Virus genome (UHGV): UHGV-0111899
Source of the DNA: a virus
Strand: one strand, 5' to 3'
DNA: 23,450 bases
The translations under genes and the position numbers were made by a program. The notes under the pieces were generated by a model. The model did not search any database, was not told where the DNA came from, and was given only the letters and a program-made list of their open reading frames with translations. The first letter of the stretch is position 1; each line of letters starts with the position of its first letter. Shown piece by piece: positions 10,342 through 17,890 of the stretch.

Positions 10342-10865
10342 TCTGCCCTCCTGACGCCCTGCCCGATCGCCATCAATGCCGCTTTGGATACGGTAGTAAA
10401 CATCCGTCGAGGACTGATGAACGGTCGCCAAATCAGCAACATGGAACCTTTGCTGTTTCCCTTCTTCTCCAGCCCTGTCGATGGTTCGATAAAATTAATC
10501 CGTCCATCAGTAATGATGCGAACTTCGTCAATACTCTCCAGAGCCTTGCTGAACCATCCGACAGACATATCCTCTGGCACAAGCATCACTATCGTCTGTC
10601 TCTGTTGTATGCACTGCTCAGCGGCTTTTTCCACCCACGGCCTGATATTGCTGTACGGTGGGTTATTCCAGATTGCACCGTGGCTTATCCACTCAGAATT
10701 TAGCGCGTCGTCAGCCTCAGTTAGCCAGTGAGCGCACAGAGCGTTTTTGTCGCTCGCTGCTGAATCCAGCCAGAATCCAAACTCAATATCCAGCGCATCA
10801 AAAAGCCAGAGCGACGTTTGCCAGCAGTCCTTATCGTGTGCTGGCGTATTTGATTTGATAGTCAT
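10338..10865 (-). CDS. DNA N6-adenine methyltransferase (phage Dam-like; NPPY catalytic motif)
   Basis: About 175-aa ORF from the ATG at 10865 (overlapping the ninB stop); contains ...[20 protein letters not shown]..., the (D/N)PPY motif IV of amino-methyltransferases; occupies the lambda ninC/ninD position. Confidence 0.8.
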
Positions 10866-11302
10866 GCAGCCCGATCTCCCCATCGCGCTTTCCACTCCAG
10901 AGCCAGTCGCGCTTCGTCTGACCACTTAACGCCATGCTCTGTACCGAATGCCTGTATAAGCTCTAATAGCTCCGCAAATTCGCTTACACGCATCCTGCTG
11001 GTTGACTGGCCTATTACCACAAAGCCATTCCCGGCAAGGTTAGGAACAACGTCCTGCTGCTTTAATGCTGCGGTAAACACACACTTCCAGCTTTCTGCAT
11101 CCAGCCAGCGACCATGCCATTCAACCTGACGAGAGACGTCACCAAGGCAAGCCCAAAGCTTTCGATTCTGGTCTAAACTGCGGTTGCGTTCCTGAATGGT
11201 TACTACGATTGGTTTGGTTGGGTCTGGAAGAATTTGCTGTACCGCGTGAATAGCGTTTTGCTGATGTGCTGGAGATCGAATTTCAAAGGTTAGTTTTTTC
11301 AT
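10862..11302 (-). CDS. ninB: NinB (Orf recombination mediator)
   Basis: From the ATG at 11302, MKKLTFEIRSPAHQQNAIHAVQQILPDPTKPIVVTIQERNRSLDQNRKLW... matches recalled lambda NinB. Confidence 0.9.
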   Translation of the reverse strand: MKKLTFEIRSPAHQQNAIHAVQQILPDPTKPIVVTIQERNRSLDQNRKLWACLGDVSRQVEWHGRWLDAESWKCVFTAALKQQDVVPNLAGNGFVVIGQSTSRMRVSEFAELLELIQAFGTEHGVKWSDEARLALEWKARWGDRAA

Positions 11303-11322
11303 GACTTCCCTCTCCCCCAAAT

Positions 11323-11352
11323 AAAAAGGCCTGCGATTACCAGCAGGCCTGT
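11323..11352 (-). terminator. intrinsic terminator between ren and ninB (tR2-like)
   Basis: Minus strand reads AGGCCTGC-TGGTAATC-GCAGGCCT followed by TTTTTATTT: an 8-bp GC-rich stem with U-run. Confidence 0.6.
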
Positions 11353-11375
11353 TATTAGCTCAGTGATGTAGATGG

Positions 11376-11666
11376 TCATCTTTTAACTCCATATACCGCC
11401 AATACCCGTTTCATCGCGGCACTCTGGCGACACTCCTTAAAAATTAGGTTCGTGCTCATCTTTCCTTCCCGTTCTTCCTTGGTAGCAAACCGGTAATACA
11501 CCGTTCGCCAGACCTTACCTTCGATAACCAGAAGACCTGCCCGTGCCATTTTAGCCGCGGCCTGATTTATGCTGGTTACTGTTGCGCCTGTTAGCGCGGC
11601 AACGTCCGGCGCACAGAAGCTATTATGCGTCCCCAGGTAATGAATAATTGCCTCTTTGCCCGTCAT
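11376..11666 (-). CDS. ren: Ren
   Basis: 96-aa translation MTGKEAIIHYLGTHNSFCAPDVAALTGATVTSINQAAAKMARAG... matches recalled lambda Ren. Confidence 0.9.
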   Translation of the reverse strand: MTGKEAIIHYLGTHNSFCAPDVAALTGATVTSINQAAAKMARAGLLVIEGKVWRTVYYRFATKEEREGKMSTNLIFKECRQSAAMKRVLAVYGVKR

Positions 11667-12364
11667 ACACTTGCTCCTTTCAGTCCGAACTTAGCTTTGA
11701 GTTCTGCGATCTTCGCCAGAGCCTGTGCACGATTTAGAGGTCTACCGCCCATGACAGGAAGTTGTTTTACTGGTTCAGGGATCGCCTCACCACGGTTAAT
11801 TCTCGCAGTCATATGGACAAGCTCATCTGCGGCCTTACGGCGTAATTCCGCATCAGTAAGCGCATTGGCCCGCATGTTCTGATACAGGCTGGTAACCAGC
11901 CAGTAGTGCGCGTTTGATTTCCACGGATAAGACTCCGCATCCGGATACAGGCCTCGCTTCCGGCAATACTCGTAAACCATATCAACCAGCTCGCTGACGT
12001 TTGGCAGTCCGGCGATAACGGATGCTTCTTCCCGGCACCATGCAACAAACTGCCCGGGTGATGGCAGAAATGGTCGATTCTGCCGACGGGCTACGCGCAT
12101 TCCTGCGTTAACCTGTTCCATTGTGGTGATCCCGTTTTCCCGGAAAGCCAGAACCCACTGGCGGCGGATTTCGTTCAGTTCGTTCTGGTCACGGTTAGCC
12201 AGACTCGCCGGGAAAGTTGCCAGTAACTGGCTGAACACACCGTTGATGATCTGCGCTACCTGCTGTACCTGCGGCTTTTCGTCGTACTGTTCCGGCATGT
12301 TGTTGGCGATCCTACGCATCTGCTCACGGTCAAAGTTAACCATCTGTGCGGCGATGTTTTTCAT
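11663..12364 (-). CDS. P: replication protein P (DnaB helicase loader)
   Basis: 233-aa translation MKNIAAQMVNFDREQMRRIANNMPEQYDEKPQVQQVAQIINGVF... matches recalled lambda P. Confidence 0.95.
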   Translation of the reverse strand: MKNIAAQMVNFDREQMRRIANNMPEQYDEKPQVQQVAQIINGVFSQLLATFPASLANRDQNELNEIRRQWVLAFRENGITTMEQVNAGMRVARRQNRPFLPSPGQFVAWCREEASVIAGLPNVSELVDMVYEYCRKRGLYPDAESYPWKSNAHYWLVTSLYQNMRANALTDAELRRKAADELVHMTARINRGEAIPEPVKQLPVMGGRPLNRAQALAKIAELKAKFGLKGASV

Positions 12365-13253
12365 AGATCCACCCCGTAAATCCAGTCTGTGTTTGTCAGG
12401 TCGAGTTTTGGTTTGCTGGCTGTCACGACTGCCTGTTGCTTGTTACGGTTGATTTCGAGCTGGGTCCACTTGTCGCGGAGTTTGGCCGGGCTAAGCACGT
12501 TACCGGACCAGAAGTTGTCCTGGCATGCCCAGCGGAACAGCACGCACATGTCGCGGTGGTTACGTCCGTCACGTTCACGCATCAGGCGGATATCGTTAGC
12601 CCACCCTGCAAAATTCGGTTTTCTGGCTGATGGCGCGATGGTCTTCACCATGTCAAACATCCACTCTGCGGCGGTCAGGTCTTCTGCTGTCCCCCACTTG
12701 CTGCCGCTCTGAATTGCAGCATCCGGTTTCACCACAGAAAGGTCGTTTTCTGGCTGGTCAGAGGATTCGCCAGAATTCTCTGACGAATAATCTTTTCTTT
12801 TGTAATAGTGTCTTTTGTGTCCCCCTGTTTTGAGGGATAGCAATCCCCCAATTTGAGGGATGTTTTATCCCTCGTTTTAGGGGATTTTCCCTCGTTTTGA
12901 GGGATGCACCATTCTGAGATGTTTTTGTTTGGTCCAAACATGCCGCCTTGCTGCTTGATAATATTCATTCTGACGAGTTCTAACTTGGCTTCATTGCACC
13001 GTTTAACAGGTAACTTTGTAATCTCGCTAAGTTGAGAATCGGTGATTCTGTCCATTGGTTTATTCCACCCATAGGTTTTACGCAGAATGGCAAGCAGCAC
13101 TTTAAACTGTCGCTTGGTCAGATCTGCGCCTGAATAAGCCTCAAGCAGCATATTTGATAGTCTGGCGTAACCATCATCGAGATCTGCCACATTACGCTCC
13201 TGTCCGGCAAAGTTACCTCGGCCGAAGTTGAGTATTTTTGCTGTATTTGTCAT
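12361..13253 (-). pseudogene. O: replication initiator O, disrupted by a frameshift (apparent 7-bp deletion within the ori A/T-rich tract)
   Basis: Two track ORFs in different frames, 12729..13253 (O N-terminal domain, 154 matching residues then a 20-aa out-of-frame tail) and 12361..12843 (O C-terminal domain, 145 residues); 154+145 = 299 = lambda O length. The locus spans 893 nt versus the 900 nt needed for an intact gene. Confidence 0.8.
12787..12906. repeat. ori-lambda: four ~19-bp O-binding iterons plus shortened A/T-rich segment
   Basis: Plus-strand iterons gtccccctgttttgaggga, tcccccaatttgagggat, atccctcgttttaggggat, ttccctcgttttgagggat at about 12819-12906; adjacent A/T-rich tract at 12787-12807 is shorter than recalled for lambda. 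Confidence 0.8.
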
Positions 13254-13263
13254 AATGACTCCT

Positions 13264-13341
13264 GTTGATAGATCCAGTAATGACCTCAGAATTCCATCTG
13301 GATTTGTTCAGAACGCTCGGTTGCCGCCGGGCGTTTTTTAT
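13264..13341 (+). ncRNA. oop: OOP antisense RNA (antisense to cII 3' end) with promoter pO and terminator tO
   Basis: Sequence GTTGATAGATCCAGTAATGACCTCAGAATTCCATCTGGATTTGTTCAGAACGCTCGGTTGCCGCCGGGCGTTTTTTATT matches recalled lambda OOP RNA; upstream -35 TTGAGT, 17-nt spacer, -10 CATAAT (13251-13256); GC hairpin plus U-run at the 3' end. Confidence 0.7.
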
Positions 13342-13578
13342 TGGTGAGAATCGAAGCAACTTGTCGTGCCAATCGAGCCATGTCGTCGTCAACGACACCC
13401 CATTCAAGAACAGCAAGCAGCATTGAGAACTTTGGAATCCAGTCCTCTTCCACCTGCTGATCTGCGACTTATCAACGCCCACAGCTTCCGCTGTCTTCTC
13501 AGTTCCAAGCATTGCGATTTTGTTAAGCAACGCACTCTCGATTCGTAGAGCCTCGTTGCGTTTGTTTGCACGAACCAT
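13284..13578 (-). pseudogene. cII: cII transcriptional activator, disrupted by a 1-bp deletion frameshift
   Basis: From the ATG at 13578, MVRANKRNEALRIESALLNKIAMLGTEKTAEAVGVDKSQISRWKR matches recalled lambda CII. The frame then leaves the CII reading frame at about 13441-13451 (CC where lambda is recalled to have CCC); the CII C-terminus (DWIPKFSMLLAVLEWGVVDDDMARLARQV...EQIQMEF) continues in another frame down to 13284. Confidence 0.75.
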
Positions 13579-13657
13579 ATGTAAGTATTTCCTTAGATAA
13601 CAATTGATTGAATGTATGCAAATAAATGCATACACCATAGGTGTGGTTTAATTTGAT

Positions 13658-13689
13658 GCCCTTTTTCAGGGCTGGGATGTGTAAGAGCG
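13658..13689 (-). promoter_or_regulatory. nutR (boxA CGCTCTTACACA, boxB GCCCTGAAAAAGGGC)
   Basis: Minus-strand boxA and hairpin boxB between cro and cII, matching recalled lambda nutR. Confidence 0.7.
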
Positions 13690-13697
13690 GGAATGTC

Positions 13698-15053
<1,356 letters not shown>

Positions 15054-15093
15054 TCCCCACCTCAATCTCGATAACCAAAAAACAAACTATTTT

Positions 15094-15183
15094 CCGTTTA
15101 AAAACAATGGAGTTTGTTTTTCATGCCCCTTTTTTACAATATCTCTTGTTTACAACATACAATCTTTCTTGTAATTTTAAGCC
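15094..15183 (+). promoter_or_regulatory. 434-type left operators OL and promoter pL
   Basis: ACAA-N6-TTGT sites at 15094-15107, 15136-15149 and 15159-15172; putative -35 TTTACA (15149-15154), 17-nt spacer, -10 TAATTT (15172-15177). Transcript start near 15184, where sequence becomes the recalled lambda pL leader (ATCAGCAGGACGCACTGACC...). Confidence 0.65.
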
Positions 15184-15217
15184 ATCAGCAGGACGCACTG
15201 ACCACCATTGAAGGTGA

Positions 15218-15248
15218 TGCTCTTAAAAATTAAGCCCTGAAGAAGGGC
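15218..15248 (+). promoter_or_regulatory. nutL (boxA TGCTCTTAAAAATTAA, boxB GCCCTGAAGAAGGGC)
   Basis: Exact match to recalled lambda nutL boxA/boxB in the pL leader. Confidence 0.8.
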
Positions 15249-15406
15249 AGCATTCAAAGCAGAAGGCTTTGGGGTGTGTGATACGAAACGAAGCATTGGC
15301 CAGAAGTGCGAATCCGGATTAGCTGCAAATGAGCCAATCGTGGGGTGTTTTCGTTCAGGACTACGACTCACACACACCACCAAAGCTAACTGACAAGAGA
15401 ATCCAG

Positions 15407-15730
15407 ATGGATGCACAAACACGCCGCCGCGAACGTCGCGCAGAGAAACAGGCTCAATGGAAAGCAGCAAATCCCCTGTTGGTTGGGGTAAGCGCAAAAC
15501 CAGTTAACCGCCCTATTCTCTCGCTGAATCGCAAACCGAAATCACGAGTAGAAAGCGCACTGAATCCGATAGACCTTACGGTGCTGGCTGAATACCACGA
15601 ACAGATTGAAAGCAACCTGCAACGTATTGAGCGCAAGAATCATCGATTTTGGTATAGCAAGCCAAGTGAGTTCGGTATAACTTGTCAAGGAAGACAAAAG
15701 GTTAAAGGGAAATCCATTCCATTGGCATGA
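15407..15730 (+). CDS. N: antitermination protein N
   Basis: From the ATG at 15407, MDAQTRRRERRAEKQAQWKAANPLLVGVSAKPVNRPILSLNRKPKSRVESALNPIDLTVLAEYH... matches recalled lambda N (Arg-rich boxB-binding motif at the N-terminus). Confidence 0.9.
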   Translation: MDAQTRRRERRAEKQAQWKAANPLLVGVSAKPVNRPILSLNRKPKSRVESALNPIDLTVLAEYHEQIESNLQRIERKNHRFWYSKPSEFGITCQGRQKVKGKSIPLA

Positions 15731-15738
15731 GGTACGTA

Positions 15739-16608
15739 ATGAAGAAAATTGATTACAAGTCCATACCAAAACCAATAGACTCAGCATCAGAGCGAAAAAA
15801 ACACAAAAAAGAGGCTGAAAAATTAGCAAATTATATCAGTTTTATTAGAAACAATGCTCACGGCGATGGCGACAGGAAGTTGCTTTCAGATGCCCGGACC
15901 CAAGCGTTCAGTATACTTCGTAAGCAGATGCAATATCGTCTTCATCCAGGCTACATAATTGAAATTCGCCCGACTGAAAGACAATTGTTCTTATTAAACT
16001 CTGTCTTTGACTTTATAAACGTAGTTGGAGATCTTATCGACAGGTCTGTAGATAAGGCTCCTGATACAAATAGTTTTCTTCTAACAAATAAAGAATACTT
16101 ATATGGTAAATTTGGTATAAACGGATGGCAAAAATATGTACGATTCTTACGTGCATTCGTTGATGCGTATAAAAATTCCGACATGATTTATACATATTTG
16201 CCTGGTGGTGATAATTGTACGCTTTCGGCAGACAATAGAATATTCATACCTATACTTGGTCTTGGGCTGATTAATGCAGTAAATGAAAGAGATGTTATAA
16301 TTGTTAAGCAGTGGCGAAAGCATGAGGGATATAGATATCTGCCATGCTTTGATATATTAAAAATACAGAATAAATTCTATGTAAAAATTAAATATAAAGA
16401 AGATGTTTTCTTCCTCAGAAAAAACAAAGATCTTTTACAAGAACTTTCTGGGACAATAGATGTCATCGTAGGTTCTAGGTTTATAAAAGAACTGAAAGAA
16501 AGCAGGTCTTTCTCTCGTGTAGAGATAAGCGAGTCAGAGTTATGGGGTATATCAAATAATCCTGTAAACCACGCTCACCAACGAAATCCAAACAAAAAGT
16601 GGTCATAA
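15739..16608 (+). CDS. hypothetical protein, AT-rich orphan gene in the pL operon at the lambda ral/sieB position (candidate defence or counter-defence factor)
   Basis: 289-aa ORF from the ATG at 15739 with GAGGT SD 5 nt upstream (an alternative ATG at 15727 overlaps the N stop). Strongly Lys/Asn/Ile/Tyr-rich; by eye about one-third GC against roughly half in flanking genes. No recognised motif. Confidence 0.7.
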   Translation: MKKIDYKSIPKPIDSASERKKHKKEAEKLANYISFIRNNAHGDGDRKLLSDARTQAFSILRKQMQYRLHPGYIIEIRPTERQLFLLNSVFDFINVVGDLIDRSVDKAPDTNSFLLTNKEYLYGKFGINGWQKYVRFLRAFVDAYKNSDMIYTYLPGGDNCTLSADNRIFIPILGLGLINAVNERDVIIVKQWRKHEGYRYLPCFDILKIQNKFYVKIKYKEDVFFLRKNKDLLQELSGTIDVIVGSRFIKELKESRSFSRVEISESELWGISNNPVNHAHQRNPNKKWS

Positions 16609-16796
16609 CCCGCTCAGGCGGCTTTCATTTTCACGCAAACAACAGAATAAACACTGCACTGTGTATTCATTCCAACGAGTGAATACACGGAGCAATGTCG
16701 CTCGTAACTAAACAGGAGTCGACTTGTTCTGATTATTGGAAATCTTCTTTGCCCTCCAGTGTGAAGGCGATTTTTTATCTATGAGGATATGAATAG

Positions 16797-17165
16797 ATGT
16801 CAAACATCAAAAAATACATCATTGATTACGACTGGAAAGCATCAATAGAAATTGAAATCGACCATGACGTAATGACAGAGGAAAAACTTCACCAGATTAA
16901 TAATTTCTGGTCAGACTCTGAATACCGACTCAATAAACACGGCTCTGTATTAAATGCTGTATTAATCATGCTGGCGCAACATGCTCTGCTTATAGCAATT
17001 TCAAGCGACTTAAATGCATATGGTGTTGTGTGTGAGTTCGACTGGAATGATGGAAATGGTCAGGAAGGATGGCCTCCAATGGATGGTAGCGAAGGAATAA
17101 GAATTACCGATATCGATACATCAGGAATATTTGATTCAGATGATATGACTATCAAGGCCGCCTGA
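16797..17165 (+). CDS. Ea10-like early protein
   Basis: 122-aa ORF with GAGGA SD; size and position upstream of cIII match lambda ea10, and the sequence resembles my recollection of it, though I cannot verify residue-level identity. Confidence 0.65.
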   Translation: MSNIKKYIIDYDWKASIEIEIDHDVMTEEKLHQINNFWSDSEYRLNKHGSVLNAVLIMLAQHALLIAISSDLNAYGVVCEFDWNDGNGQEGWPPMDGSEGIRITDIDTSGIFDSDDMTIKAA

Positions 17166-17237
17166 GTGCGGCTTTACCGCATACCAATAACGCTTCACTC
17201 GAGGCGTTTTTCGTTATGTATAAATAAGGAGCACACC

Positions 17238-17402
17238 ATGCAATATGCCATTGCAGGGTGGCCTGTTGCTGGCTGCCCTTCCGAATCTTTACTTGAACGA
17301 ATCACCCGTAAATTACGTGACGGATGGAAACGCCTTATCGACATACTTAATCAGCCAGGAGTCCCAAAAAATGGATCAAACACTTATGGCTATCCAGACT
17401 AA
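17238..17402 (+). CDS. cIII: CIII (FtsH inhibitor protecting CII)
   Basis: Translation [54 protein letters not shown] matches recalled lambda CIII (54 aa); AAGGAG SD upstream. Confidence 0.9.
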   Translation: MQYAIAGWPVAGCPSESLLERITRKLRDGWKRLIDILNQPGVPKNGSNTYGYPD

Positions 17403-17514
17403 ATTCACTATCGCCACTTTTATTGGCGATGAAAAGATGTTTCGTGAGGCCGTCGACGCTTATAAAAAATGGATATTAATACTGAAACTGAGATCAAGCA
17501 AAAGCATTCACTAA
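17371..17514 (+). CDS. kil: Kil (host cell-division inhibitor)
   Basis: Translation [47 protein letters not shown] (47 aa) matches recalled lambda Kil; overlaps the cIII 3' end and gam 5' end as in lambda; AGGAG SD. Confidence 0.8.
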
Positions 17515-17885
17515 CCCCCTTTCCTGTTTTCCTAATCAGCCCGGCATTTCGCGGGCGATATTTTCACAGCTATTTCAGGAGTTCAGCCATGAACGCTTAT
17601 TACATTCAGGATCGTCTTGAGGCTCAGAGCTGGACGCGTCACTACCAGCAGATCGCCCGTGAAGAGAAAGAGGCAGAACTGGCAGACGACATGGAAAAAG
17701 GCCTGCCCCAGCACCTGTTTGAATCGCTATGCATCGATCATTTGCAACGCCACGGGGCCAGCAAAAAAGCCATTACCCGTGCGTTCGATGACGATGTTGA
17801 GTTTCAGGAGCGCATGGCAGAACACATCCGGTACATGGTTGAAACTATTGCCCGCCACCAGGTTGATATTGATTCAGAGGTATAA
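17469..17885 (+). CDS. gam: Gam (RecBCD inhibitor)
   Basis: 138-aa translation [55 protein letters not shown]... matches recalled lambda Gam. Confidence 0.9.
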
Positions 17886-17890
17886 AACGG

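Follow-up and report, generated by a model that had tools for sequence, protein, structure and literature searches.

In phage lambda, the replication origin ori-lambda (39034-39160) consists of four 18-bp iterons and a 38-bp High-AT sequence (PMC3349717). The initiator protein O can bind without the AT-rich region (PMC7466680), which opens once O binds to the iterons on supercoiled DNA (PMC5043065). In O itself, a flexible linker joins the origin-binding N-terminal domain and the P-binding C-terminal domain (PMC6022878). Two classes of such mutants are relevant here. The first class affects the protein. The amber mutant Oam317, which retains the 160 N-terminal residues, is counted among the conditional-lethal O mutants, O cannot do without its last five residues, and cloned O alleles of prophage mutants that had spontaneously become replication-defective (ilr) showed zero complementation (PMC6022878). 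The second class affects the DNA element. The mutations r96, a 15-bp deletion (39139-39153), and r95, a 12-bp deletion (39123-39134), both lie in the High-AT region; upon induction, the r95 and r96 prophages showed no initiation and neither a phage yield nor a rise in titre, and the O proteins of both mutants complemented as well as the wild type or better (PMC6022878).

Here we describe a natural prophage in which, very probably, the inherited loss of one heptamer unit at a recurrent mutational hotspot has broken O, shortened ori and rendered the prophage replication-defective. The window (the whole 23,450-nt stretch of the UHGV virus genome UHGV-0111899 that was analysed) is a lambdoid prophage with the head genes at the left and the integrase at the right. 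Its early right operon, on the minus strand, contains a 434-type cro, cII, O, P, ren and nin genes in this order, and a 434-type cI is located on the plus strand (14020-14652). The immunity region has 98.8% identity to those of phage 434, lambda imm434 and HK633. The O locus (12361-13253, minus strand) is 893 nt long. In lambda, 434, DE3 and dozens more phages O has 900 nt, and in six-iteron Stx-type origins it has 939 nt; the same O query aligns to 900 or 939 nt in about 1,300 E. coli genomes.

The N-terminal and C-terminal halves of O are not in one frame, so the 299-residue product that characterizes the lambda-type module is not encoded. The ORF in the N-terminal frame (12729-13253, minus strand, 174 residues) specifies the native residues 1-154, which are identical to those of lambda O, and then 20 out-of-frame residues (IIRQRILANPLTSQKTTFLW) before it ends at a TGA codon. 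The full Pfam profile PF04492 (Phage_rep_O) was matched at residues 22-115 of this fragment (E 1.4e-36). The C-terminal, P-interacting part of O lies in the -1 frame (12361-12801, minus strand) and runs from the native K154/R155 to L299 plus the stop codon, with one substitution compared with lambda (G278V). No Pfam model matched this half, and lambda O had no relative of solved structure in a sequence search of the PDB. The C-frame stop codon (12361-12363) overlaps the start of P by 4 nt, as in lambda, and P itself (11663-12364, minus strand, 233 residues) is intact (full match to PF06992, E 7e-62). By its N-terminal domain, its iterons, the adjacent A/T-rich segment and the P gene, the locus is a lambda-type O/ori module. 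Two features of a working module are missing, namely a C-terminal half in frame and an A/T-rich element of full length.

The first-pass annotation had described two ORFs that are in different frames and overlap by 115 nt, and the ORF list indeed gives an overlap from 12729 to 12843. It had further stated that the residue counts of the two halves sum to 299. This holds for the native residues (154 + 145) and not for the mechanical ORF lengths (174 + 160), the 160-residue ORF (12361-12843, minus strand) having just a mechanical TTG start as its upper end. That both halves belong to one O gene, as had been proposed, is evident from the intact 900-nt allele of E. coli 09A19CPO009, which does not differ from the O locus of the window at a single position outside of a 7-nt gap. 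The predicted deficit of 7 nt (893 versus 900 nt) was confirmed by the alignment with lambda, and both against lambda and against the closest intact allele the window O has exactly one gap of 7 nt and no further indel.

The 7 nt lost correspond to one unit of a perfect tandem heptamer, AAAAGAA-AAAAGAA, at lambda positions 39138-39151. The lambda tract reads ATTAC-AAAAGAA-AAAAGAA-AAGATT, and the tract of the window ATTAC-AAAAGAA-AAGATT. Tandem Repeats Finder described the lambda tract (39138-39153) as a repeat with a period of 7, 2.3 copies and 100% matches; at the deletion site, ACAAAAGAAAAGATT (12789-12803, minus strand), 1.3 heptamer copies are left. This residual tract falls inside the A-rich run at about 12787-12807 to which the deletion had been assigned beforehand. 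The gap has 10 equivalent placements (lambda 39138-39147). Judged from the repeat structure, a slipped-strand misalignment between two overlapping 9-bp direct repeats (AAAAGAAAA) is the likely cause of the 7-bp loss. The remaining tract also contains AAAAGAAAAG (12792-12801, minus strand), which is a 5-nt unit present twice. A second slip of 5 nt within AAAAGAAAAG would bring the total loss to 12 nt, restore the O frame and leave a linker shorter by 4 residues; among 124 O loci, no allele of 888 nt or 927 nt was found.

The same bases belong to the origin. Repeat search and alignment both revealed four iteron copies in a block inside the O gene (12821-12906, minus strand), and the individual O-binding iterons (12821-12839, 12844-12862, 12868-12886 and 12888-12906) are identical to ITN4-ITN1 of lambda. 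The A/T-rich (unwinding) element, mapped from lambda 39119-39160, extends from 12786 to 12820 on the minus strand and is 7 bp shorter than its lambda counterpart. The earlier claim that part of the unwinding element of ori has been lost is thus borne out, since the missing heptamer lies inside the High-AT region of ori-lambda; the same region also encodes the interdomain linker of O. The tract is complete in 106 of the 107 sampled alleles that lack the 7-nt deletion, the exception (L138) having lost one A. A special constraint on the A/T-rich segment was considered and rejected: its invariant run of 46 nt (lambda 39119-39164, with the allele carrying the 1-nt deletion set aside) is not significant, given that 111 of the 900 alignment columns are variable and that other invariant runs extend over 38 and 29 nt.

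The 7-nt deletion is real and inherited. An artefact of sequencing or assembly, in which case the true genome would have two heptamers and an intact O, could be suspected, because errors can accumulate in A-rich tracts of low complexity and cII has a second frameshift, located in a G run 650 nt away. The first-pass annotation had likewise raised the possibility of an assembly error. This worry is answered by the recurrence of the same junction in independent assemblies and in complete genomes. The Logan assembly of run ERR1190758 matches the window with 100% identity across positions 10602-19445, and a JGI metagenome contig (L005) bears both the 7-nt loss in O and the cII lesion. The assembly collection lists 36 blocks with the exact 174-residue product, which was observed on 21 contigs, and a second 174-residue variant with the same aberrant tail is present on 39 contigs, one of which is a chromosome of 5.16 Mb. 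Over the full 75-nt probe, the deletion junction was recovered from 9 complete E. coli genomes, with a 100% match in O55:H7 DEC5A, FDAARGOS_946 and FDAARGOS_1258 and a match of 98.7% in six O157:H7 strains, so that reference genomes of the FDAARGOS, O157:H7 and O55:H7 sets are among the carriers. In four of the four carriers inspected (DEC5A, FDAARGOS_946, F7349 and FDAARGOS_1258), PGAP labels O as 'frameshifted'. Moreover, the loss of a whole 7-nt unit is atypical for a homopolymer error, and the relative L012 combines the 7-nt deletion with an intact cII, so that the two lesions separate as heritable characters. On the strength of the independent assemblies, the artefact was rejected and is regarded as extremely improbable.

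The deletion is rare. Among complete E. coli genomes, 9 carry it versus about 1,324 with a full-length probe match (approximately 0.7%), and among IMG/VR viral contigs 3 carry it versus at least 120 with an intact junction. In the phage genome collection (INPHARED), none of the 131 records that cover the junction has the deletion, which is not significant and only weak evidence, as 1-2 carriers would be expected at a frequency of about 1%; the value fits the direction expected for a replication defect. An exact-pattern scan of the GTDB species representatives found no deletion junction, which is uninformative because this set contains one genome per species.

To characterize the backgrounds of the deletion, 124 full-length O loci were extracted from the retrieved sequences and aligned with MAFFT. 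The 7-nt gap was present in 17 of the 124 loci, which form 7 sequence groups. Outside of the gap, five of these groups have 0 substitutions compared with an intact allele, one has 2 and one (L008) has 9, and no two groups are closer to each other than 8 substitutions. Three of the 17 alleles have 932 nt (939 minus 7) and thus belong to six-iteron origins; they make up two groups, one composed of L016 and the allele of O157:H7 strain F7349 (L139, 3545-4476) and the other of L017, with L016 and L017 stemming from IMG/VR. Altogether, six complete O157:H7 genomes carry the deletion. The nearest variable site (lambda 39165) lies 14 nt from the tract, and both A and C are found there alongside the deletion. 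The carriers represent at least four immunity contexts, that is, the 434 type, a HicA-associated type, true lambda cro/cI with the Nu1/A terminase, and a P22-cro type.

The occurrence of one and the same lesion in several distinct allele backgrounds makes the heptamer repeat of lambda-type origins look like a hotspot of mutation, and the recurrence is most simply read as slippage that took place repeatedly and independently at this perfect tandem repeat. Alternatively, the deletion might have occurred once and spread to other O backgrounds by recombination, in which case the tract would be no hotspot. In favour of this, recombination among lambdoid prophages is constant, a swapped module in the Q region is the sole difference between the window and L005, and the 46 bp around the tract (lambda 39119-39164) are invariant, so that short conversion patches would be traceless. 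However, spread from a single event would need at least five separate short-patch transfers, each with both flanks identical to the local intact allele, and one of them would have had to take place between a four-iteron and a six-iteron origin that differ at the SNP located 14 nt from the tract. In addition, a perfect tandem repeat is a classic substrate of slippage, and a different indel hits the same tract. A single origin is therefore considered unlikely, and independent slippage is the reading that we prefer.

The other indel is a reduction from A6 to A5 (AAAAGAAAAAGAAAAG) in the APEC strain IMT5155 (L138; O at 784-1682, tract at about 1225-1261), whose O gene has 899 nt and is annotated as 'frameshifted'. 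UM146 and one further genome gave the same 81-nt probe match as IMT5155. From these sequences, the tract looks indel-prone in general.

A frameshifted gene need not be silent, and two possibilities of residual O activity were weighed. The first is a leaky allele. The shift required to regain the native frame is -1, and the deletion itself places the tetramer A_AAG (12792-12795) in the zero frame, from where a slip enters the native C-terminal frame. Slippage by -1 on A_AAG (GAA AAG, 12792-12797) would yield an O protein devoid of R155-K156, and the prophage would be attenuated, with a low level of initiator. Such a protein would probably be active, and the O proteins of r95 and r96, in which 4-5 linker residues are deleted, complement well (PMC6022878). 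In E. coli, no tetramer is more shift-prone than A_AAG, which reaches 5.6% with the strong pseudoknot of IS3, whereas tetramers without a proper stimulator yield 0.147% versus a background of 0.112% (PMC4066793). The motif is a tetramer and not an X_XXZ_ZZN heptamer. An RNA hairpin of 10 bp is predicted 3 nt downstream of A_AAG (12765-12788, minus strand; MFE -18.9 kcal/mol, z -3.15). Yet a spacer of just 3 nt looks short for a downstream frameshift stimulator, and intact alleles have the same hairpin, which therefore has not evolved for frameshifting. Furthermore, frameshifting would leave the origin 7 bp short, and the phage genome collection contains no carrier. Nor do the alleles themselves lend support to the idea: apart from L008, they are too close to intact alleles (0-2 substitutions, mostly 0) and hence too young to give any power to detect selection for maintenance. 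We consider the leaky allele improbable. There is a similarly slim chance that the deletion allele is not fully dead and that, through rare -1 shifts, it acts as a one-step 'dimmer': instead of being simply knocked out, the prophage would become an element that replicates weakly and spares its host.

The second possibility is a functional split initiator, in which an N-terminal protein of 174 residues and a C-terminal protein of 123 residues would both be made by translational coupling and would act together. Indeed, the stop codon of the N-terminal frame overlaps a GTG start codon in a GTGA motif (12729-12732, minus strand), from which a C-terminal ORF of 123 residues (VKPDAAIQ...) begins; gene callers predict 174 plus 123 residues with this 4-nt overlap in all relatives that carry the deletion, and the break lies exactly in the interdomain linker. 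Nevertheless, no Shine-Dalgarno-like sequence precedes the GTG, and the GTGA overlap probably arose just as a side effect of the frame change. The role proposed for O in PMC6022878 needs the N-terminal and C-terminal domains to be physically joined, and nothing suggests that the separate halves associate. A split initiator is thus extremely doubtful, and a loss of O function by truncation is the preferred reading.

Several further observations concern the remainder of the prophage. Alignment showed that the cII gene (13286-13578, minus strand) is disrupted at about 13445, where a GGG run has lost 1 nt (AAGAGGGAC to AAGAGGAC). The window, L005 and L014 have this lesion in common, and it is absent from the imm434 relative L012, in which O has the deletion and cII is intact, as well as from L003, in which both genes are intact. 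Because L012 has the 7-nt deletion together with an intact cII, the cII lesion arose after the O lesion in the lineage of the window. Over about 20 kb, both lesions included, the window and L005 match exactly apart from a module around the Q antiterminator gene that has been replaced (swap 6954-7933): all 40 mismatches fall at 7771-7933, and no alignment was obtained at 6954-7767. Evidently, to judge by this comparison, the seemingly replication-dead prophage still exchanged a module by recombination. A G run at about 13993-14000 (plus strand), in the operator/promoter region between cro and cI, is one G longer than in L012 and equal to that in L003. The pL operon includes an ORF of 293 residues (15727-16608, plus strand) between N and the cIII/kil/gam block. 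It had no PADLOC match, its 289-residue counterpart in L005 has no Pfam match on record, and it may be an accessory (moron) gene; a PADLOC scan of the neighbouring ORFs without assigned function returned nothing useful.

As for the consequences of the deletion, the O frame is broken after codon 154, and the product would comprise the origin-binding domain and the 20 aberrant residues without the P-recruiting C-terminal half. With strong genetic precedent, such a truncated O is expected to be unable to recruit P-DnaB. We strongly infer that O function is lost, because Oam317 provides a precedent and the ilr alleles fail to complement. The unwinding element, in turn, is 7 bp shorter within a tract whose 15-bp deletion in r96 inactivates ori-lambda in cis, and a loss of ori function in cis is plausible by this analogy. 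After induction, the prophage would be unable to start theta replication, which would spare the host the replicative killing and leave the prophage stranded; the frameshift in cII is a later addition in this lineage. A single 7-bp event strikes both the initiator protein and the DNA element on which the initiator acts. The overlap with r96 suggests that the shortened origin is inactive in cis; in this case, O supplied in trans by a co-resident phage would bring no rescue, and recombination would be the sole means of repair.

Overall, the lesion represents ordinary prophage decay at a mutational hotspot, and a frameshifted O has already been flagged as a pseudogene in related genomes. Beyond the first-pass annotation, the analysis identified the lost bases as a unit of a tandem heptamer, the presence of the lesion in further prophages and the frameshift in cII. 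Our literature searches found no description of a 7-bp O/ori deletion in natural prophages or of its recurrence. What appears to be modestly new is that the heptamer repeat of lambda-type origins is a site of recurrent failure. Its occurrence in several backgrounds, including the Shiga-toxin-type six-iteron origins of O157:H7, suggests a built-in fragile site that regularly strands prophages, which is relevant for predicting which prophages, Stx-type prophages included, still amplify after induction. In addition, the deletion junction offers annotators a simple sequence marker.

The PGAP pseudogenes of DEC5A, FDAARGOS_946, FDAARGOS_1258 and F7349 are the closest natural counterparts. They have the same 7-bp junction in a locus of 893 or 932 nt, but reside in other prophages with other immunity regions, and their O backgrounds differ by at least 9 substitutions from that of the window; the annotation flags the frameshift alone, without the loss of the heptamer or the effect on ori. 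Among laboratory mutants, the Rambach mutants r96, r95 and r99, which were resequenced in PMC6022878, resemble the natural lesion in being small deletions in the High-AT region of ori-lambda inside O. Indeed, r96 spans the same heptamer tract and removes it as a whole, whereas the natural deletion removes half of it. The r mutants were selected as survivors of induction, that is, for the loss of replicative killing (PMC6022878). However, the r mutations described in that source are in-frame deletions of 12, 15 or 24 bp that act purely in cis, with an O protein still active in trans, whereas the natural deletion is out of frame and truncates O. An assignment of the natural deletion to the r class was therefore rejected, 7 nt not being a multiple of 3. 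Oam317 and the RK- ilr O mutations share the other property, as they truncate or frameshift O and so abolish the initiation of replication (PMC6022878). Like the natural deletion, the ilr alleles arose spontaneously in a prophage, and they were recovered as survivors of induction, but they are laboratory isolates of lambda itself (PMC6022878). As the loss of replication would relieve the host of killing upon induction, such lesions should persist in lysogens, because this relief is the very selection that yielded the r and ilr mutants. By analogy with both sets of mutants, the natural 7-bp deletion would behave like a hybrid of the two laboratory classes, combining a deletion in the replicator, as in the ori- mutants, with a null allele of O.
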